Shown here: in pieces, positions 9,746 to 32,000 of the stretch | Layout of the letters: every line of letters begins with the position of its first letter | How positions within the stretch are numbered: position 1 is the first letter of the stretch | Assembly (NCBI RefSeq): GCF_018336915.1 | Contig: NZ_CP064923.1 | Span: forward strand, 5,280,001-5,312,000 | Source of the DNA: Acaryochloris marina S15 | GTDB taxonomy: Bacteria; Cyanobacteriota; Cyanobacteriia; Thermosynechococcales; Thermosynechococcaceae | Length of the DNA stretch: 32,000 bases | Reading direction: 5' to 3' | The notes under the pieces: generated by a model | The model's database searches: none | The model's input: the letters and a program-made list of their open reading frames with translations, nothing else | Told to the model about the DNA's origin: nothing | Translations under genes and position numbers: made by a program

Positions 9746-10675
9746 ATGGTGAATACCCTTACCAGTGTCAGGCCCCAAGTTAAGCGACTGCAAGATAACC
9801 TCGGGACCACCATTGTTGGTAAACATGAGGCCATTCAGTTGGTGCTAGTGGCACTACTGGCCGGAGGACATGCTCTGTTAGAAGATGTGCCTGGAGTAGG
9901 TAAAACCTTGCTGGCTAAGTCTTTAGCCCGCTCCATTGATGGTCAGTTTCATCGAATTCAATGCACGCCAGATTTGCTGCCGAGTGATTTAACCGGGACC
10001 AATATTTGGAATCCCCAAGAAGGAAAATTTGAGTTTCTAGCCGGTCCAATTTTTGCCAATGTGCTGCTCACGGATGAAATTAACCGGGCCACTCCCCGGA
10101 CTCAGTCTGCTCTGCTAGAAGTGATGGAAGAGGCCCAAGTCACCATTGATGGGGTGTCTCATCCCGTCCTCGATCCGTTTTTTGTGATTGCGACCCAAAA
10201 CCCTGTTGAATATCAAGGCACGTTTCCTTTACCCGAAGCCCAGCTGGATCGGTTTGCCTTGGCTTTGAGTTTGGGCTATCCCTCAGAAGCAGAAGAACTG
10301 CAAATGCTAGAGCGTTTGAAGTCTGGCAAATCTTTTCAGAAATTACAGCCCTGCATTACCTTGGCTGAGGTCAAACAGCTCCAGCAAGACTGTCTAGCCA
10401 TTCAAGTAGAATCTTCAGTCCAGCGCTATATCTTGGCGTTGGTGCGCGCCACGCGGGAGCATGATGATATTACTCTAGGTATCAGTCCTAGAGGGACGGT
10501 GACTCTCCAGCGAGCTAGTCAAGCCCTAGCGCTAATAAACGGACGAGATTACGTGCTGCCAGATGATGTAAAGTTCCTGGCTCCCCACGTACTTCGCCAT
10601 CGCCTCATCCCTGCTGCCGGACATTCTGCCCAAGGGATTGTCGAGCAGTTACTGAATGCGATCGCAATTCCCTAA
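9746..10675 (+). CDS. MoxR-family AAA+ ATPase
   Basis: 309 aa. Walker A is EDVPGVGKT and Walker B is LLTDEINRA. Also present are VIATQNPVEYQGTFPLPEAQLDRF and a C-terminal lid (SPRG...). This is the classic MoxR/RavA-subfamily layout. Confidence 0.9.
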   Translation: MVNTLTSVRPQVKRLQDNLGTTIVGKHEAIQLVLVALLAGGHALLEDVPGVGKTLLAKSLARSIDGQFHRIQCTPDLLPSDLTGTNIWNPQEGKFEFLAGPIFANVLLTDEINRATPRTQSALLEVMEEAQVTIDGVSHPVLDPFFVIATQNPVEYQGTFPLPEAQLDRFALALSLGYPSEAEELQMLERLKSGKSFQKLQPCITLAEVKQLQQDCLAIQVESSVQRYILALVRATREHDDITLGISPRGTVTLQRASQALALINGRDYVLPDDVKFLAPHVLRHRLIPAAGHSAQGIVEQLLNAIAIP

Positions 10676-15673: not shown

Positions 15674-16675
15674 TTACTCTGGCACATCACCAACAGCCTG
15701 AGACGTTTGAGCCTGGACAGTCAGCGGATACCCTGCAGGTGACCCCGCTGACCATTCCCACATGGAACCAGCATAGTTTTGCACCTGAAACCCCAAGTCA
15801 GCCAGAACAACCGTTAGCCATCCCGAGCGAATCCCCCCAGTACAGTAAGCCACCACCACAGTTTCTTGGGTAATCCCTAAATTAGCGAGTTTTGCCACAA
15901 TCTGATCTCGGGGTAAAAGCCTGCCTTGAGGCGTTAACAGATCCTGAAAATGTAGGGAAATAGCCCCCGGCACATGCCCTCGCCGCTGCTCTCCATAAGG
16001 AGTCGCTCCTGCATACTCTTTGGGAGTACGCGTATCGATTAACACTAGATTGGGTCGATCAAGAGCCGCTTTTAATTCCGCTTTCTGAATCTGCCAGGTG
16101 GGATTTCTTTGAACCTCAAAATCTCCCTGTTTCGGCATGTCGGGAGCAGTCAGGTTCAATGACACTAAGGCTGAATACCCACCGTCCACCATCACCGCCT
16201 GTGGATGCCCTAGAGTTCTCAACATCCAAACAATCCGTCCCTCCTCTCCCCAACCCTGCGGTGGATTGGCAAAAACAACCACAGGCCGCTCTTTGGAGAT
16301 TCCTAATCTCCTGAGTTTCTGGTTTAAAACTGCATCGCTCTCTAGCAGCGTTCCTTTGCGGACTTTATTAGAGGGAGAAAAATCTTGCCATCGCACCGGA
16401 ATACTCCCCGGTAGCTGATTGAAACCCAACCACTGATTCCCTCGGGCATCCAGCAGGGTAGCGCCTTGATCGACTAAAGCCTTAGCTTCTAATGCACTGA
16501 CCACCCAAGTTTGTTCAAGCTGAGGTAGCTGGGAACGCAGCGTGTAAGAAATTTGCGGCGAATTTGTGCGAGAAGTAGTGTTTGTAGTGTGAGTGAATGC
16601 GATCGCACCCAAAAACAGCACAATTCCCAGAACTGCAGCTCGTATCACCTTTGCAGGAACAGGACTACGCATCAT
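15674..16675 (-). CDS. Tandem-rhodanese sulfurtransferase (thiosulfate/3-mercaptopyruvate sulfurtransferase-like) with an N-terminal membrane anchor or signal sequence
   Basis: There are two rhodanese modules, and the active-site loop CTGGIRSG sits in the C-terminal one. The ORF track starts at 16723, but codons 1-16 overlap the tRNA-Thr on the same strand. I therefore place the start at the MM pair (complement ATG 16673-16675), giving MMRSPVPAKVIRAAVLGIVLFLGAIAF. Confidence 0.85.
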   Translation of the reverse strand: MMRSPVPAKVIRAAVLGIVLFLGAIAFTHTTNTTSRTNSPQISYTLRSQLPQLEQTWVVSALEAKALVDQGATLLDARGNQWLGFNQLPGSIPVRWQDFSPSNKVRKGTLLESDAVLNQKLRRLGISKERPVVVFANPPQGWGEEGRIVWMLRTLGHPQAVMVDGGYSALVSLNLTAPDMPKQGDFEVQRNPTWQIQKAELKAALDRPNLVLIDTRTPKEYAGATPYGEQRRGHVPGAISLHFQDLLTPQGRLLPRDQIVAKLANLGITQETVVVAYCTGGIRSGWLTVVLADLGFQVQNYAGSMWEWSAGSPAGYPLTVQAQTSQAVGDVPE

Positions 16676-16700
16676 CCTATAAGTAGGATAGAAACCAAAA

Positions 16701-16773
16701 AGCTGGTGACATGACTCGAACATGCGACCGGCTGATTACAAATCAGCTGCTCTACCAACTGAGCTACACCAGC
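16701..16773 (-). tRNA. tRNA-Thr (anticodon UGU)
   Basis: The reverse complement folds as a cloverleaf: GCTGGTG TA GCTC AGTTGGTA GAGC A GCTGA TTTGTAA TCAGC CGGTC GCATG TTCGAGT CATGT CACCAGC T. The length is 73 nt and CCA is not encoded. Confidence 0.92.
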
Positions 16774-16976
16774 GTGCTTAGACATTATATAAGCGTTATG
16801 GCCAAAACGCCCATACCCATCAAACTAGCTCATCTATGATAATTCAGATATTCCCACTTTTTCATAAATGGTGGCAAATTCTCTGTAGATTGTAGAGAAG
16901 CACCCGTTGGGCAATAGCCATTGCCCTGCTCTCATCCGGTAGCAAGGTTGCCGTAATCCCTGATTTTGCCCTGCTC

Positions 16977-18290
16977 ATGACTATGAATTGGACGGTTGAG
17001 CAAGTGATTGCTCTATCTCCGGACGATAAATCCACCAAAAACGGTAAAAGTTTGGCAAATGCCAGTAAATGGCAAACCTTATGCACAAATAACCAGGCCA
17101 TTTGGGGCGAATGTCGCGGCAGTGGCAAGAAGCCTTACCGCACCCAAATTGATCTCAGCGAACCCGCTTTTCGCTGTAGCTGCCCGAGCCGCAAGTTTCC
17201 CTGCAAGCATTCCCTGGCACTGTTTTTGCTGCTAGCTAACCAAGTCGATTTATTTACCACCGCCGATCCACCTGACTGGGTACAGGAATGGTTAGAGAAG
17301 CGCTCGAAAACCGCATCACGCAAGCAGGCCAAGGCCGCCACCGCCGATCCAGAAGCCCAAGCCAAGCGTATCGCTCAGCGAGAAACCAAAATCCTTGCAG
17401 GTCTGGCCGATTTAGACCAGTGGCTCCAGGATTTAATGCGTCAGGGCTTAGCCACTGCCCAAACTCAACCCTATAGCTTTTGGGAAAAGGCCGCCGCCCG
17501 CATGGTCGATGCCCAAGCCCCCGGACTCGCCCGTCGCCTACGAGAAATGGCCAGTATTCCTCACACAGGCGGCAATTGGCCTTCTCGCCTGTTAGCCGAA
17601 CTGGGCAAGCTTTATTTGCTCATGCAAGGCTATCAGCGACTGGCAACTTTACCAGAAGCCGTGCAAGCAGAACTGCGATCGCAAATCGGCTGGACCCAAA
17701 AACAAGAGGATCTGCTCACTAGCCCCTCCCCTCTAGCGGTCAAGGATACCTGGTCAGTCCTGGGCAAACGGATCACCACCGAAGAAAACTTAAATGTTCA
17801 ACGCGTCTGGCTTTGGGGAATCACCCATCAACGCCCTGCCCTCATTCTCAGTTTTGGGTATCAAAATCAGCCCCTCGACACCAGCTTGATACCCGGAACT
17901 CAGATCTCGGCAGAGTTGGTGTTCTATCCAGGACTCTATCCCCTACGGGCATTGGTCAAAGAGCGACAACCTGGCGTTGACCTCATCCCCCCATCTGGAG
18001 GTGCAGTCCAGCTGGCTGACGCCATCACCCATTACGGAACTGCACTAGCCACCAACCCTTGGCTAGTACAGTTTCCATTGCTGTTAACAGCAGTCATCCC
18101 TCACCAGAAGGATCAACAATGGTACATCGCAGATTCTCATGGGCATCACTTACCCCTCCAGTTAGGGTTTGATGCTTGGTCCCTGCTGGCCTTAAGTGGT
18201 GGGCATCCAATCATGCTCTTTGGTGAATGGAATGGCCACAACCTCCTCCCCCTCAGCCTATGGCCTGACAACCGCTTTGTCCCTTGCTAG
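16977..18290 (+). CDS. SWIM zinc-finger family protein
   Basis: 437 aa. The CxCx6CxH SWIM signature is FRCSCPSRKFPCKHSLALFLL (nt 17175-17210). It is preceded by W..EQV.AL.PD..S..G..LA...W......IWGECRGSGKKPY, which I recognise from the SWIM proteins of SWIM/DUF5691 clusters. Confidence 0.85.
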   Translation: MTMNWTVEQVIALSPDDKSTKNGKSLANASKWQTLCTNNQAIWGECRGSGKKPYRTQIDLSEPAFRCSCPSRKFPCKHSLALFLLLANQVDLFTTADPPDWVQEWLEKRSKTASRKQAKAATADPEAQAKRIAQRETKILAGLADLDQWLQDLMRQGLATAQTQPYSFWEKAAARMVDAQAPGLARRLREMASIPHTGGNWPSRLLAELGKLYLLMQGYQRLATLPEAVQAELRSQIGWTQKQEDLLTSPSPLAVKDTWSVLGKRITTEENLNVQRVWLWGITHQRPALILSFGYQNQPLDTSLIPGTQISAELVFYPGLYPLRALVKERQPGVDLIPPSGGAVQLADAITHYGTALATNPWLVQFPLLLTAVIPHQKDQQWYIADSHGHHLPLQLGFDAWSLLALSGGHPIMLFGEWNGHNLLPLSLWPDNRFVPC

Positions 18291-18293
18291 GAG
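18289..18293 (+). promoter_or_regulatory. Shine-Dalgarno (AGGAG) for the downstream gene, overlapping the SWIM gene stop codon
   Basis: The sequence is ...TGC TAG GAG ATC ATG ATG. AGGAG lies 3 nt before the first ATG and 6 nt before the second, which implies translational coupling of the two genes. Confidence 0.5.
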
Positions 18294-18296
18294 ATC

Positions 18297-19856
18297 ATGA
18301 TGCCAACCCCTTGGGAACAGCTAGTCGCCCATGCCTTAATCGGTACCGATCGCCAAGCTCCACAATTGCCAACGGGCGAGGGGCAACTCGAAGTATTGCT
18401 GAGCCAAGTTCCCCCAGAGCCCGAACCCATGCTCTTACAATCTGCGGGTATTTTGGCCAGTTATCAACAGGCAGGACAATGTGCATTCTCTCAGGTGGGA
18501 CCACTACCGAATCCCTGTCCAGAGGAAACCTTATCCCGCTGCAGTGATCGTACCCATCAACATCTACAAACGATTCTCAATGGCGAATACAAAGACGTTT
18601 TATATGAACTCTTGGATCTCATGGGCCAAGCTCACCAATATGTTCCAGCAGAAACCTTACCCGCCCTCTTAGATCAGGGCCGTGGGCACACCCAGGTACG
18701 ACCCCGTATCCAAAATGTTATGGGTGAACGGGGTCGCTGGTTGGCACAACAACATTCGGCTTGGGCTTATGCAGCAGGTCAACCTTTGCCTTATACCCAG
18801 GCTGGGGAAATCGACCAAGAGGCTGTGGAAAACTTGTGGAAAACTTCTGATTACGCCCTCCGAATCGATCTGTTGAAAACTTTCAGAAGTCTTAATCCTC
18901 AAGCCGCTCGAGAGATGTTGAGCACCACATGGAAACAAGAAAAGGCGAAAGATCGAGCAACGTTTCTCGCCATCCTAACCACGCATCTCAGTGTAGAAGA
19001 TGAACCCTTTCTAGAGATAGCATTACATGATCGCGCCCAGGAAGTCCGCACCTGTGCAGGTGGCCTGCTAGCCCATTTGCCCGATTCACAATATTGCCAG
19101 CGCATGACTGCCCAGGTACAAACCTATATTCAGTTTGAGGACAATACCCTCTCCATTACACTCCCCAAAGATGATGGCTCCTGGAAAACTGAGCGTTCTT
19201 ACTCCCAATCAAGTCAGTTAGGAAGGCGAGGGAGTCTGCTAATGCGAATCGTAGCAGGCGTTCCCTTAAACTTTTGGTCAGGCGATATAGATGCTCTGAT
19301 CCAAACCGCCCAGACACACCAACAGGGTGCTGCTCTATTACAAGGATGGACCATCGCAGCCCAGAGACAAGCCAATCCATCGTGGATCCAACGAATGATG
19401 GGCTATTGGCTCAGCAATCCTACCGAGAAGCAAACCTATGACCCTATTGATTTTCTGATTAAACGGTTGCCCGCTGAACAGGTTGAGCCGCTATTTCTAA
19501 AATACCTAGCCGAATCCAGCTCTCCAGCAGAAAAAGCCACGAAATATATCAGATTAGCCAAGTGGGGCCCATTATTTAGTCCTAATTTCAGTCAAGTCTG
19601 GTGGGAAACCCTCGAGCCTGACCTCAACCTATTACTTGCCAACACTTCAAATTCTTTCCAGGCACGATCACCTTTTGCAACGTTGCTATCGCTGTTCGAG
19701 ACCGTGTCTTTCAATCTGCATCCCATCATTGCAGATGATGTCATTGCTTACCTCAACCACTTGAATAGCGATTCATTCTCGACCTATCAACAAAACAGCT
19801 TGATGCTATGGCAAAACACCCTTGAATTTCGTAAATCTATCTGGGCAGAGTTTTAA
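18297..19856 (+). CDS. DUF5691-like protein (partner of the SWIM protein), containing HEAT-like repeats
   Basis: 519 aa. The N-terminus PWEQLVAHALIGTDRQ matches the W..L...AL.GT.R opening I recall for DUF5691. A HEAT-like segment is present (LHDRAQEVRTCAGGLLAHLPDS). The gene is only 6 nt from the SWIM stop. Confidence 0.7.
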   Translation: MMPTPWEQLVAHALIGTDRQAPQLPTGEGQLEVLLSQVPPEPEPMLLQSAGILASYQQAGQCAFSQVGPLPNPCPEETLSRCSDRTHQHLQTILNGEYKDVLYELLDLMGQAHQYVPAETLPALLDQGRGHTQVRPRIQNVMGERGRWLAQQHSAWAYAAGQPLPYTQAGEIDQEAVENLWKTSDYALRIDLLKTFRSLNPQAAREMLSTTWKQEKAKDRATFLAILTTHLSVEDEPFLEIALHDRAQEVRTCAGGLLAHLPDSQYCQRMTAQVQTYIQFEDNTLSITLPKDDGSWKTERSYSQSSQLGRRGSLLMRIVAGVPLNFWSGDIDALIQTAQTHQQGAALLQGWTIAAQRQANPSWIQRMMGYWLSNPTEKQTYDPIDFLIKRLPAEQVEPLFLKYLAESSSPAEKATKYIRLAKWGPLFSPNFSQVWWETLEPDLNLLLANTSNSFQARSPFATLLSLFETVSFNLHPIIADDVIAYLNHLNSDSFSTYQQNSLMLWQNTLEFRKSIWAEF

Positions 19857-20658
19857 AACTCCTTAGCTTCTAGATCAATTCAGACCAAGTGATTTTTTTC
19901 ATCACTTCTACAAAAGTCTTCAGCATACAAACCGTACTCTACATTGATGTCTAGCTTGAGCTTCATTCAGGCTATCTCAATACTAAGGAAGTTAAAGCTA
20001 TAAAATATAGCGATAAATAGAGATTACAGGAGTATAAGCAATTCTATAACAAAATTTTTTACTAATAAAGCTTAAATCAAGAGTTTTGGCTTAAAAAACT
20101 TTAGCTTGAATAAGCTATCGAAAAGGCAAATATTTATCTTCTTCCACAAGAAAATAGCAATTATTTTTATTTGTGAAATTTTTAATTTCAACCTAAAAAG
20201 CTGTTCTCAATACCTCAAAATAAATTAATAATTCATATCTATTTTGATGCTATAAAAGAGTAAATCTTGCATCACGGAATACTGATATTCTTTATGCGTT
20301 ATCAATAATATAGAAGTGCTTCACTCTATAAGGCTTGGATATTTTACCCAACTTCATAGGGATAGTTTTAGATATTTATAAATTGTTGGGGGAGGAGTAA
20401 AATTTTATCAACCATCTGGTGAGTGCTTTTGATGTCATCGCTTCAAAAACGAGTTGACAGCACAAAAAATTATCCGTAATAACACGCAAGCACCCTGATA
20501 TTTAGATAGTTAGAATAATTGCTAGTGAGGGAAAATCATTAACCAACCTTATGGTTAATGCTCAGAGTGCTTGGAAAATTTTTGATCATTTTTTGTTACT
20601 GACTAGTGATTGTTAGCCACTTTTTCATGTTTCGATAGCTTATCTCTCTCTTCAACCT

Positions 20659-22131
20659 ATGCTGGCCAAGTCTCAAACGATCCTGCCTTCTCCGCCACTT
20701 ACCATTAATCCCCGTGGGTTTGAGTTGTGGTATCAACCGGTTTATGACGTTTCTTCAGGTAACGTTCTTCAGAATGAAGTGCTCTTACGATGGCGGGATA
20801 CCCAAGGACTTATCCATCGGCCGAAAGAATTCATGCCAGCGGTTAGAAGTGCGGATGCCGAGCAATGGTTAGATCGCTATGTGACAGGGCAGGCCATTGC
20901 CCAATTGAAGCAACACGCTCACCTCAAGCTTTCCATCAACTTATCGAAGCGGATCGTTGAAGATCGCTTTATTGCCGAAGACATTTACGATCTGCTGGTC
21001 AACCATAGTGTTCAACCTCATCAGCTTCACTTCGAAGTATCTGAAGCCAGTCTGGCCAAAAATTTTCAGGATTCAGTCGCTTTAATCCGAGATCTAAAAG
21101 AACTAGGGTGCGCCGTCACCTTAGACAATTTTGCCAACCAACATCTCACCTTTCTGCAATGGGAAAAACTAGGGGTTGATGCGGTTAAAATTGACCCGTC
21201 TTTGATTCGCGACCTCAAACAAGACTCGCCCCAAACGCGACTGGCCAAAGCCATCATTGAAACCAGTAACTCATTGGCACAGCCTGCGATCGCAACTTCC
21301 GTAGACGCTTACTCTACCTCTCGTCACTTGGTCAATCTAAGCTTTCAATCTGCTCAGGGATACCACTTCCAGCCTCCTAGCGATCACCCTTGGCTCACGA
21401 GCAAAGTCGACATTTTGGGTGTCCCCATCGATAACGTGACCCAAGACGAACTGCTCCAAGAACTGAAATCGGGTATCGTCTTTACTCCCAATGTTGACCA
21501 CCTGATGAACCTGAAGCAGGATGAGGAGTTTCGGGCTGCTTACAACATTGCCGACTACAAAATTTGCGATAGCCAAATTCTCTACTTTTCCTCCCATTTC
21601 CTCGGTTCACCGATTAAAGAGAAAATCTCAGGTTCAGATTTATTTCCTGCCTTTTACACCTATCACAAAGATAATCCAGACATCACGATTTTTCTGTTAG
21701 GCGCTGCTCCAGGTGTTGCCGCTCAAGCGCAACAAAATATCAATGCTCGCGTGGGTCGTGACATCGTTGTTGGCTCTTACTCCCCTTCCTATAGCTTTGA
21801 GCAAAATCCAGAGGAATGTGCAGAGATTATCGAACGGATCCATCACTCTGGAGCAACAGTTCTCGCCATCGGGGTCGGATCTCCCAAACAAGAACGGTGG
21901 ATTTACCGTTATCGTCAGCAGCTAGCAGAGTCCGTGAATATTATTTTTGCCATTGGTGGGACCTTGGACTTTGAAGCTGGTACTCAACAACGGGCTCCAA
22001 AGCTTGTCAGCACCATTGGCATAGAGTGGCTCTTTCGTTTGATGGGCGAACCAAGACGCCTCTGGAAGCGCTATTTAATTAATGATCTGCCATTCTTGAA
22101 GTTAGTCTTGAATCAAAAGTTTCATCGCTAA
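20659..22131 (+). CDS. Fusion protein: N-terminal EAL domain (partly degenerate) plus C-terminal WecB/TagA/CpsF-family (GT26) glycosyltransferase
   Basis: 490 aa in a single ORF. EAL motifs are YQPV...EVLLRW, SINLS, FEVSE, DNFANQ (in place of DDFGTG), VKID, ATSVD (in place of EGVE) and AQGY. The GT26 part is ILGVPIDNVTQDELL...FTPNVDHLM...IFLLGAAPGVA...LAIGVGSPKQERW...IFAIGGTLDF..G...RAP......GIEWLFRL..EPRRLWKRY. Confidence 0.85.
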   Translation: MLAKSQTILPSPPLTINPRGFELWYQPVYDVSSGNVLQNEVLLRWRDTQGLIHRPKEFMPAVRSADAEQWLDRYVTGQAIAQLKQHAHLKLSINLSKRIVEDRFIAEDIYDLLVNHSVQPHQLHFEVSEASLAKNFQDSVALIRDLKELGCAVTLDNFANQHLTFLQWEKLGVDAVKIDPSLIRDLKQDSPQTRLAKAIIETSNSLAQPAIATSVDAYSTSRHLVNLSFQSAQGYHFQPPSDHPWLTSKVDILGVPIDNVTQDELLQELKSGIVFTPNVDHLMNLKQDEEFRAAYNIADYKICDSQILYFSSHFLGSPIKEKISGSDLFPAFYTYHKDNPDITIFLLGAAPGVAAQAQQNINARVGRDIVVGSYSPSYSFEQNPEECAEIIERIHHSGATVLAIGVGSPKQERWIYRYRQQLAESVNIIFAIGGTLDFEAGTQQRAPKLVSTIGIEWLFRLMGEPRRLWKRYLINDLPFLKLVLNQKFHR

Positions 22132-30451: not shown

Positions 30452-31342
30452 AAAAGGTTATGACATCCCAAGAAATTTCAAGCCTGCTTTATGCCCAAAA
30501 TTACAGCTGACTCTTTGCATGCCATTGAACACTGTTGCTACTATATCTAATCAGTTGCGATATAAGTCTTGGGAACAAGTATTAGGATATTTATTTAATA
30601 CTTAAAAAGTATCAGATAACTCTGGCAAGATAATAAAAAAAATTATTAAGACTCTACAAATTCCATCAAAAATACCTACAAAAAAATATCACTTTGGTAT
30701 ATGATTTATACGGACATTAAATCTATTTTTTAAAAAAATAGGTTTAATCGATATCTTAAAAATTTCAATAGATAGACTGTCCACAGCCTTTTTAGTGCAG
30801 TGTCTCAATTGAGTGCAATTAAAAAAACGTCGCACATTATCACCCTTCATCTGTCAGGAGATCTCTGCAATACTTGAGCACTGTTTAACCTATATAAACG
30901 CAAATCCAAAGAAGCTTTGCCATAACCATATGGCTAGCTATACTTCTGCCTGAGTCTTTTCAGGTCCAGTCTAATTTTTTTGTGGACTGAAGAAATATAT
31001 AAAGCATAATGCTATCGATTCGAGATATAGACATATATTCAGAGGATATATACAATCTTCCTGAATAAAATCAGTTATAGGTCAAATAATTAGCTCAAAT
31101 CAAAACACTTTAGATCGAAAAACTTACAAGTGCAGCCTAGACTTAGAAATACATGCTTACTTAAAAGAGCTTATTTTTTTGCTTGTTTTTAGCACTTAAA
31201 TATCGAAGTACTTCATCTAGGTTAATCCAATTAACACTGGCATGCTTCAGCACTATTCATATATAAATAACTAACTTTTTTTATTCAATATCTTGCAATC
31301 TCTATTCACTTTTCTTGTTGGAAATAATGTGAGATTCTCAAA

Positions 31343-32000
31343 ATGAACTCTAACAATATTGCATTAACTACAGAAATCACAGGAGCACGCCTTCTCAAAG
31401 ATATCACCCCAGACGGTACGTCTAGATTTCCAGGTGATGACTCCGGTTCTAATCCATCGAACTTGACCGAATTCGATGGCAAGCTATTTTTTTCAGCGGA
31501 TGATGGAACCAATGGAAGCGAGCTGTGGATTAGTGACAGGACTACTAATGGCACACAGCTTTTAAAAGATATTAATCCAATCGAAAGGTACTATAACAGT
31601 CTCTATGCATCTAGATATAGATCTTCTAGTTCTAATCCATCGAACTTGACCGAATTCGATGGCAAGCTATTTTTTTCAGCGGATGATGGAACCAATGGAA
31701 GCGAGCTATGGATTAGTGACGGGACTATTAATGGCACACAACTCTTAAAAGATATTAATCCAGGAAGCTCGTATAGGGGAATCCCATCCCCAGGTGGCCG
31801 GCGGCCTAATAGCTCTCGTATAGCTAACTTCATCGAACTCGATGGTAAGTTATTTTTTACCGCGACTGATGGCACCTCCGGAGAAGAACTTTGGGTCAGT
31901 GATGGGACGGTTGACGGTACACAACTGCTAAAAGATATTTATCCTGGAAGCTCATTTGAGTCTCGCATAAACCGGGGTTTGCGGCCCAACAGCTCTGGTA
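31343..32000 (+). CDS. ELWxxDGT-repeat protein, N-terminal part (gene runs off the right edge)
   Basis: An open frame runs from ATG 31343 to the window end, with an in-frame TAA at 31325 upstream. At least three units of the form F(D/E)G/DGKLFF.A.DGT.G.ELW(I/V)SDGT..GT.LLKDI.P are present. It is absent from the ORF track because there is no stop codon in the window. Confidence 0.8.
   Translation, partial: MNSNNIALTTEITGARLLKDITPDGTSRFPGDDSGSNPSNLTEFDGKLFFSADDGTNGSELWISDRTTNGTQLLKDINPIERYYNSLYASRYRSSSSNPSNLTEFDGKLFFSADDGTNGSELWISDGTINGTQLLKDINPGSSYRGIPSPGGRRPNSSRIANFIELDGKLFFTATDGTSGEELWVSDGTVDGTQLLKDIYPGSSFESRINRGLRPNSSG
31446..31762 (+). repeat. In-frame tandem duplication (period 183 nt = 61 codons) inside the ELWxxDGT gene
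   Basis: 31446-31579 and 31629-31762 (134 nt each) differ at only 5 positions by my alignment. The third repeat unit, from about 31810, is conserved only at the protein level. Confidence 0.85.

Follow-up and report, generated by a model that had tools for sequence, protein, structure and literature searches.

A SWIM zinc-finger/DUF5691 gene pair of Acaryochloris marina S15 belongs to a widespread five-gene MoxR/VWA system that is fragmented in this genome

We analysed a stretch of 32,000 nucleotides from the chromosome of the cyanobacterium Acaryochloris marina S15 (NZ_CP064923.1, positions 5,280,001 to 5,312,000; hereafter the window, position 1 being its first letter), in which a gene for a SWIM zinc-finger family protein is closely followed by a gene for a DUF5691 protein. 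We found that the window holds a fragmented copy of a catalogued system of five genes, namely SWIM, DUF5691, a MoxR-type AAA_5 ATPase, DUF5682 and a VWA protein; it is no new kind of system and the window reveals no function for it. The reading that we favour, and to which we give a probability of about 65%, is that the two proteins of the pair make up a heterodimeric recognition or adaptor module of a YehL-type MoxR/VWA/DUF5682 remodelling machine, which would work in trans in this organism; the heterodimer, its docking and the nature of the client are the parts of this reading that we infer.

The membership of both proteins in their families is firm. An earlier note on this DNA, made from the letters alone, had described a 437-aa open reading frame (ORF) with a CxCx6CxH SWIM finger, and the ORF call, the letters and Pfam all agree with it: PF04434 matched residues 66-85 with an E-value of 6.5e-6 (26 bits against a cutoff of 19.6), covering the finger C67-S-C69-PSRKFP-C76-K-H78 in an N-terminal domain. 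The residues C67, C69, C76 and H78 are invariant across a 40-sequence family alignment (A4), and the window protein is 33-83% identical to 39 family members. A hidden Markov model (HMM) made from system loci matched it over its full length, and a library-wide phmmer search gave 3462 cluster representatives of the family at E<=1e-3. Beyond the N-terminal finger domain the secondary-structure content of the protein was not reliably predicted.

The second protein, of 519 aa, was matched by PF18944 from end to end of the profile (positions 1-491 of 491, E-value 6.1e-116), which bears out the DUF5691 assignment of the earlier note. Its AlphaFold2 model is an all-alpha solenoid of 27 helices and two short strands, with a predicted local distance difference test score (pLDDT) of 89.5 and a predicted template modelling score (pTM) of 0.80. 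The best Foldseek matches of the model in the PDB were importin-alpha, SF3B1, CpcE/F and alphaRep; none reaches an E-value of 1e-3, and the query-normalised TM-scores of 0.2-0.3 are those of a generic ARM/HEAT likeness. No Pfam HEAT or ARM match was found in the protein. The label 'HEAT-like' that had been given to it stands as far as a solenoid is meant, the model being a confident one, and is weak as far as the ARM/HEAT fold is meant. Profile searches of the PDB with the SWIM, DUF5691 and DUF5682 alignments gave no match at E<=1.

At the junction of the two genes the letters read TGC TAG GAG ATC ATG ATG, and the AGGAG overlaps the TAG stop codon of the upstream gene, as had been noticed earlier; it lies 3 nt before the first of the two ATG codons and 6 nt before the second. 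The spacing of 6 nt between the genes that had been claimed holds for the first ATG. The start in GenBank QUY45367.1 (518 aa) and in the Logan calls is the second ATG, so that the spacer may be 9 nt and not 6. The same junction in annotated relatives shows 9-nt spacers or overlaps of 4-11 nt. The two ORFs are probably a co-transcribed and translationally coupled pair. In RefSeq the first is already annotated as a SWIM zinc finger family protein and the second as a DUF5691 protein; the latter, as translated from the first ATG, is WP_249369572.1 of A. marina S15 and equals QUY45367.1 plus one N-terminal methionine.

We compared the pair with three relatives by the ratio of nonsynonymous to synonymous substitution rates (dN/dS); the SWIM gene gave values of 0.10-0.19 and the DUF5691 gene values of 0.20-0.32, even at dS >1. 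Both genes are under purifying selection. Taken with thousands of homologues, these ratios show that we deal with real genes and not with chance ORFs. The coordinates of the pair and of the features that flank it are collected in Table 1.

Table 1. The SWIM-DUF5691 pair and flanking features, in window coordinates
Feature	Position	Strand	Basis and remarks
SWIM zinc-finger family gene	16977..18290	+	437 aa; ORF call and Pfam
SWIM finger CxCx6CxH (C67, C69, C76, H78)	17175..17210	+	read from the sequence; Pfam
Coupling junction	18288..18302	+	TAG 18288-18290, AGGAG 18289-18293, ATG ATG 18297-18302
DUF5691 gene	18297..19856	+	519 aa (518 aa if the second ATG is the start); Pfam
tRNA-Thr(UGU)	16701..16773	-	ARAGORN; Rfam tRNA, 70.6 bits; not a system component
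Upstream intergenic region	16774..16976		alignment A5; function inferred
AT-rich gap	19857..20658		802 bp; outside the conserved unit

The earlier note had named a five-gene cluster of SWIM, DUF5691, MoxR-like AAA, DUF5682 and VWA, and such a cluster does exist, in many phyla. A scan with the DUF5691 alignment, with one genome taken per species, gave 80 loci, whose ORFs were called and searched with HMMs from seed loci; in 49 of them the order is SWIM, DUF5691, AAA_5, DUF5682 and VWA (CoxE type). The phyla in the scan include Cyanobacteria, Chloroflexota, Actinomycetota, Planctomycetota, Acidobacteriota, Armatimonadota, Deinococcota, Gemmatimonadota and Verrucomicrobiota, plus one metagenome-assembled genome (MAG) from Clostridia. 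Orthologues of the two window genes were syntenic wherever we examined them, as had been expected. With the count restricted to loci in which 6 kb or more had been searched on each side, we observed 43 complete clusters and 2 pair-only loci outside the cyanobacteria, and 6 complete and 4 incomplete ones within them.

An annotated compact operon is found on plasmid pRetIE4771d of Rhizobium etli (IE4771_RS26930-26950), where starts and stops overlap throughout. The window pair consists of the same first two families in the same order, on one strand and with a coupled junction; unlike R. etli, A. marina S15 has its ATPase gene at a distance, its DUF5682 and VWA genes unlocated and an 802-bp gap after the pair. 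Plasmids or megaplasmids carry the system in Rhizobium, Hymenobacter, Methylosinus, Deinococcus and Leptolyngbya Cla-17, and the copies are complete or near-complete in Leptolyngbya sp. Cla-17 (locus L019), Hymenobacter (H1/H2) and R. etli (L095). In Streptomyces (L064, L084) SWIM-DUF5691 is divergent from AAA_5-DUF5682-VWA, and the five genes are not one operon. Among the system loci no sixth neighbour was conserved across phyla; the neighbour search gave only lineage-specific synteny (in the actinomycete group Nonomuraea/Streptosporangium/Microtetraspora) and a promiscuous two-component family.

In cyanobacteria the cluster is scattered, with insertions of 1-4 kb (L005, L009, L016, L030), with three-gene forms (L004, L006, L023) and with an AAA_5-DUF5682 pair that has no VWA gene (L094). 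The insertion in Pseudanabaena sp. ABRG5-3 (L005, 11639-15599), 4.3 kb between DUF5691 and AAA_5, contains a PIN-domain toxin-antitoxin-like pair, a DUF5674 gene and a gene for a helix-turn-helix/M78 peptidase protein. Pseudanabaena FACHB-1998, where DUF5682 is followed by clpX and there is no VWA gene, was rejected as a clean example of a split because it is ambiguous, its AAA_5-DUF5682 genes lying 1.5 kb from a contig end. The DUF5682 family is large (at least 8000 clusters matched). In the literature collection searched we found no paper that names DUF5691 or DUF5682, none for the locus tags of strain MBIC11017 and no established function for the cluster, in agreement with the earlier note; we characterize the system as catalogued and widespread, without a published function.

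About 15 of the best 150 SWIM-family representatives (of 3462) are 936-1041 aa long, and all 10 of the long representatives that we scanned are fusions of SWIM with full-length DUF5691, in gene order; L024 holds another. Recurrent fusion, conserved adjacency and coupled junctions together argue that the SWIM and DUF5691 products probably act as one unit. Median pairwise identities, taken over the same 150 locus pairs for all five components, fall from 76% (AAA_5) through 65% (VWA), 53% (DUF5682) and 43% (SWIM) to 35% (DUF5691). By this measure the pair is the variable, fastest-evolving portion of a machine that is strongly constrained elsewhere; this suggests an adaptor for target recognition. 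As to the ATPase itself, the AAA_5 protein of A. thomasi shares 79-85% identity with its counterparts in other cyanobacteria and 79% with a protein from Planctomycetota, which is very high for an accessory gene.

For the genes missing after DUF5691 two alternatives had been offered, a system split across the genome and a reduced two-gene form, and for the ATPase at least the evidence favours a split operon rather than a truncated one. A second MoxR-like ATPase, which the earlier note had proposed to look for in the rest of the genome, is present: the cognate AAA_5 protein of S15 (QUY42173.1 / WP_212663352.1) is encoded on the same 5,881,945-bp chromosome record as the pair, and neither at the locus of the pair nor elsewhere in the window. 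The Acaryochloris AAA_5 proteins are 82-83% identical to the in-cluster copy of A. thomasi. In A. marina CCMEE 5410, in 'Moss Beach' and in several Logan assemblies the gene stands in the order ndhF, ndhD, a 141-aa gene, AAA_5, fpg, psaE, sasA, without the pair; the context of the gene is taken from these sister strains, the S15 copy not having been placed on the chromosome, and the protein accession numbers of 'Moss Beach', which do not track gene order, were not used for distance.

A sister lineage (L086, with a DUF5691 protein 57% identical to that of the window, or 56% by the search table) joins the two arrangements in one order: tRNA-Thr, SWIM, DUF5691, a 150-aa gene on the reverse strand, AAA_5, fpg, psaE, sasA. 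In A. thomasi SWIM, DUF5691 and AAA_5 are contiguous, and a third context of the pair was seen in Acaryochloris bin.148. The simplest history would start from an ancestral SWIM-DUF5691-AAA_5 block, into which a small gene was inserted before the A. marina clade underwent a rearrangement. The breakpoint of this rearrangement likely falls just after DUF5691, at the AT-rich gap that had been described earlier as some 800 bp without ORFs and that we found to be 802 bp long, with a GC content of 0.288 over 20001-20500 and no ORF of 47 aa or more. This gap stands where relatives have the ATPase gene, which is why it marks the likely breakpoint: at the same position L086 and L004 have the AAA_5 gene, and in L003 DUF5691 is followed at 57 bp by a convergent CBS gene. 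Searches of the gap gave no Rfam match above threshold and no notable repeats. A non-coding RNA, a repeat or a terminator element was considered for it and rejected, there being no RNA family, no repeats and no significant terminator or fold; the gap is probably the upstream region of the gene that follows it.

Five named strains of the A. marina group turned up in the protein clusters, and each of them has DUF5691: MBIC11017 (AM1_2681), CCMEE 5410, NIES-2412, S15 and 'Moss Beach'. AAA_5 was confirmed in three of them (S15, 'Moss Beach' and CCMEE 5410). That the pair and the ATPase have been retained together though unlinked argues for their working in trans. Of the two alternatives, then, the split stands for the ATPase, and the DUF5682 and VWA genes are unlocated; as cyanobacteria often scatter the cluster, unlinked copies of these two are plausible, and unlinked does not mean absent. 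We observed also that the solo AAA_5 gene of A. marina (L090 13793-19992, L088, L092) is three genes away from genes for a 1181-aa AAA_35 (STAND)-WD40 protein and an 864-aa kinase-TIR-AAA_35 protein, both with architectures typical of conflict systems. With fpg, psaE and sasA in between, this proximity may be a coincidence.

A search of plasmid records by tblastn with the DUF5682 protein matched yehM of Escherichia coli. The locus there consists of yehL (MoxR AAA_5), yehM (DUF5682), yehP (VWA_CoxE) and yehQ (SWIM zinc-finger family), an order that is permuted relative to the five-gene cluster, with the SWIM gene last. The full-length identity of YehL to the A. marina AAA_5 protein is 40%; YehM matches the cyanobacterial DUF5682 query over 67% of that query, with 28% identity, and YehP has 36% identity to a cyanobacterial VWA protein. 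Between YehQ (667 aa) and the SWIM protein of the window the likeness is confined to the finger (BLASTP E-value 0.24; hhalign of A4 against YehQ, probability 0.3%). We searched E. coli for DUF5691 and found none; the locus has upstream DUF4132/WGR genes, and DUF4132 (YehI), tried as an equivalent of DUF5691, has no detectable relationship to it. In the Acaryochloris neighbourhoods no counterparts of YehM and YehP were located, and an orthologue of YehL is present in the genome. The five-gene system is thereby a distant relative of yehLMPQ, the two sharing the AAA_5/DUF5682/VWA core.

YehL is one of seven MoxR subfamilies (PMC3893208), and since the AAA_5/DUF5682/VWA core is the yehL-yehM-yehP group, the subfamily of its ATPase has had a name since the 2006 classification that PMC3893208 cites. 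In E. coli yehL and yehM are silenced by H-NS (PMC3686432); yehP, whose function has been described as unknown (PMC2790909), is presumed to have come in by horizontal transfer (PMC3686432, PMC2790909).

Several better-known systems have a similar core. The nearest solved relatives of the system ATPase are Midasin and NorQ, and its VWA protein is of the CoxE type. Like the system, RavA-ViaA, CoxD-CoxE, NorQ-NorD and CbbQ-CbbO combine an AAA+ ATPase of the MoxR type with a VWA protein (with a metal ion-dependent adhesion site, MIDAS); unlike it, they are two-component systems with known client complexes and without SWIM, DUF5691 or DUF5682 partners. The ternary conflict systems of vWA and MoxR proteins (VMAP, iSTAND; Kaur et al. 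2020, PMC7159879) share a MoxR ATPase, a vWA protein and extra components, and are enriched in multicellular bacteria, and the system ATPase gives weak Pfam matches to bpMoxR; unlike them, the present system lacks VMAP and iSTAND components, and its vWA protein has no fused effector domain.

The reading that we favour, a recognition or adaptor module, can now be put as a mechanism. The pair encodes the SWIM zinc-finger and alpha-solenoid DUF5691 subunits of a five-component system, of which the others are the YehL-type MoxR AAA+ ATPase (AAA_5), DUF5682 and the CoxE-type VWA protein. In A. marina the ancestral operon would have been broken by rearrangement, the pair staying beside tRNA-Thr and the ATPase gene coming to lie at a distance on the same chromosome. 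SWIM and DUF5691, made in matched amounts, would form one heterodimeric unit, and this fast-evolving heterodimer may present a protein or nucleic-acid target to the conserved ATPase/VWA/DUF5682 engine, which would remodel, mature or process the target with ATP, as other MoxR-VWA pairs do.

Several observations weigh against this reading. The Acaryochloris loci examined have neither a DUF5682 nor a VWA gene in the 10 kb around the pair or around the ATPase gene, and the engine of DUF5682, VWA and ATPase may be incomplete in the genus. The DUF5682 profile search had no Acaryochloris among the 120 matches listed of at least 8000, a result that is uninformative as it stands; a tblastn search of PLSDB with DUF5682 gave no Acaryochloris plasmid. 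Pair-only loci occur also in a gammaproteobacterial MAG and an Armatimonadota MAG (L015, L068). The single-sequence AlphaFold2 run on the SWIM protein gave a pLDDT of 40 and no usable model. The adaptor role, finally, is suggested by three lines, namely evolutionary rates, fusions and the analogy with other MoxR-VWA systems.

A bolder form of the adaptor reading, in which we place a limited and tentative trust, takes the SWIM-DUF5691 heterodimer to be the diversifying target-recognition module of an unrecognised pan-bacterial machine for ATP-driven protein processing (YehL-type ATPase, CoxE-type VWA, DUF5682), operating in trans in Acaryochloris. The DUF5682 protein gave a sub-threshold match to TraB_PrgY_gumN (E-value 0.014), and it has the conserved motifs FGIRHHGPG, REAYM and CGAWH. 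These we take to resemble the GxxH/ExxRxxM/GxxH signature of hydrolases of the TraB/TIKI type, and under this form of the reading the N-terminal GxxH / ERExxM / GxWH motifs hint at a TraB/TIKI-like hydrolase.

One could suppose instead that SWIM-DUF5691 is an autonomous reduced form that works alone, for instance as a regulator or scaffold that binds DNA or protein, without DUF5682 and VWA and perhaps without the ATPase. We consider this unlikely. It has on its side that the pair persists undamaged, with purifying selection acting on it, in at least three genomic contexts (window/L001, L003, L086), that other phyla have pair-only loci, and that no DUF5682 or VWA gene adjoins the Acaryochloris ATPase gene. 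Yet the cognate ATPase has been kept in the Acaryochloris genomes checked and is, by its identity to the A. thomasi protein, as conserved as in complete operons; moreover, cyanobacteria often scatter the cluster (L005, L009, L016, L030, L094), so that a gene found unlinked need not be absent, and the search for DUF5682 and VWA in Acaryochloris is one that covered neighbourhoods and not whole genomes.

A similarly low probability goes to an NTP-dependent conflict or anti-phage role for the five genes as a whole, with SWIM/DUF5691 as the sensor of the invader and ATPase/VWA/DUF5682 as the switch and effector; a conflict system had been among the possibilities named in the earlier note. A patchy distribution, plasmids and megaplasmids in several genera, H-NS silencing of yehL and yehM and the presumed horizontal acquisition of yehP (PMC3686432, PMC2790909), the fast evolution of SWIM and DUF5691, and the frequency of the system in filamentous or complex bacteria would all fit it, and the sub-threshold TraB/PrgY match of DUF5682 could point to a hydrolase effector. 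Nothing in our searches supports it directly, however. The window pair had no match to any of the 5027 PADLOC models (PADLOC-DB 2.0), and the cyanobacterial AAA_5, DUF5682 and VWA proteins with E. coli YehL/M/P/Q and YehI had a single chance-level match, to IetA (E-value 0.007); no viral contig encodes a relative, and no toxin or nuclease effector could be recognised. Identities of 76% for the ATPase and 65% for VWA across phyla are far above what an arms race would lead one to expect, the window neighbours are housekeeping genes, across phyla no sixth gene recurs and the system loci bear no signature of a defence island, and SWIM and YehL are absent from the main survey of vWA-MoxR conflict systems (PMC7159879). 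The partner genes gone from the locus and the AT-rich scar after the pair might suggest that what is left of a lost operon is decaying here and has no current function; this is effectively refuted by the selection analysis (dN/dS 0.10-0.32 even at dS >1), both ORFs being intact in every strain examined, with all family-invariant residues and the start/stop coupling signal kept.

The surroundings of the pair are ordinary. Neighbouring genes are cyanobacterial housekeeping genes (EF-G, SurE, RibF, TrmFO, a NifS-like desulfurase, a rhodanese, an M23 peptidase and others). The tRNA-Thr gene lies 203 bp upstream of the SWIM gene; the same tRNA is upstream of the pair in L001, and the L086 contig begins inside it, so that its linkage to the pair has been kept in a sister lineage. 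The first ~130 nt of the intergenic region between them are ~83% identical between the window and L086 (alignment A5, our own count), although the dS of the SWIM gene between the two is 1.1, near synonymous saturation; this suggests a constrained promoter or leader, and the region probably holds the promoter and leader of the pair together with the divergent promoter of the tRNA. The longest rhodanese ORF (15674-16723) overlaps the tRNA-Thr gene, and the true start is therefore probably downstream, the protein having 332 aa in relatives.

After the gap, positions 20659-22131 encode a 490-aa protein, apparently an unusual fusion, that joins an N-terminal EAL domain (of the cyclic di-GMP phosphodiesterase type) to a WecG/TagA/CpsF glycosyltransferase domain at the C-terminus. 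Another MoxR ATPase is encoded in the window at 9746-10675; it is of the AAA_3 (MRP-type) class, has none of the usual DUF58/VWA neighbours and is followed by a GHL10-like protein. Tried as the missing ATPase of the system, it was rejected since it has no similarity to the system AAA_5. A second AT-rich stretch (30501-31500, GC 0.32-0.33) contains no ORF that reaches 120 aa. In a 93%-identical relative (L001) the gene order is the same throughout the 20 kb, with 98.2% nucleotide identity. Over window positions 8291-28844 the dS between S15 and L001 is a mosaic, with 0.003 for EAL-WecG, 0.06-0.08 for MoxR and TrmFO, 0.10-0.12 for DUF5691 and rhodanese, and 0.20 for SWIM, which suggests recombination among Acaryochloris strains around the pair.

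The wider interest of the pair lies in the system to which it belongs, a large one that extends over many phyla, E. coli K-12 included (yehLMPQ), and has no known function. An ATPase with ~76% identity across phyla is under unusual constraint for a gene set that is accessory and plasmid-borne. Acaryochloris offers a natural experiment, the pair being unlinked from the ATPase and yet present in five strains, with the ATPase in three, and the recurrent SWIM-DUF5691 fusions predict a heterodimer. What we add to the catalogued system is an operon that is fragmented and not truncated, the fusion evidence for a SWIM-DUF5691 unit and the gradient of conservation over five components. If the pan-bacterial processing machine were true, it would be new as a functional class and extend from E. 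coli yehLMPQ as far as cyanobacteria and actinomycetes.

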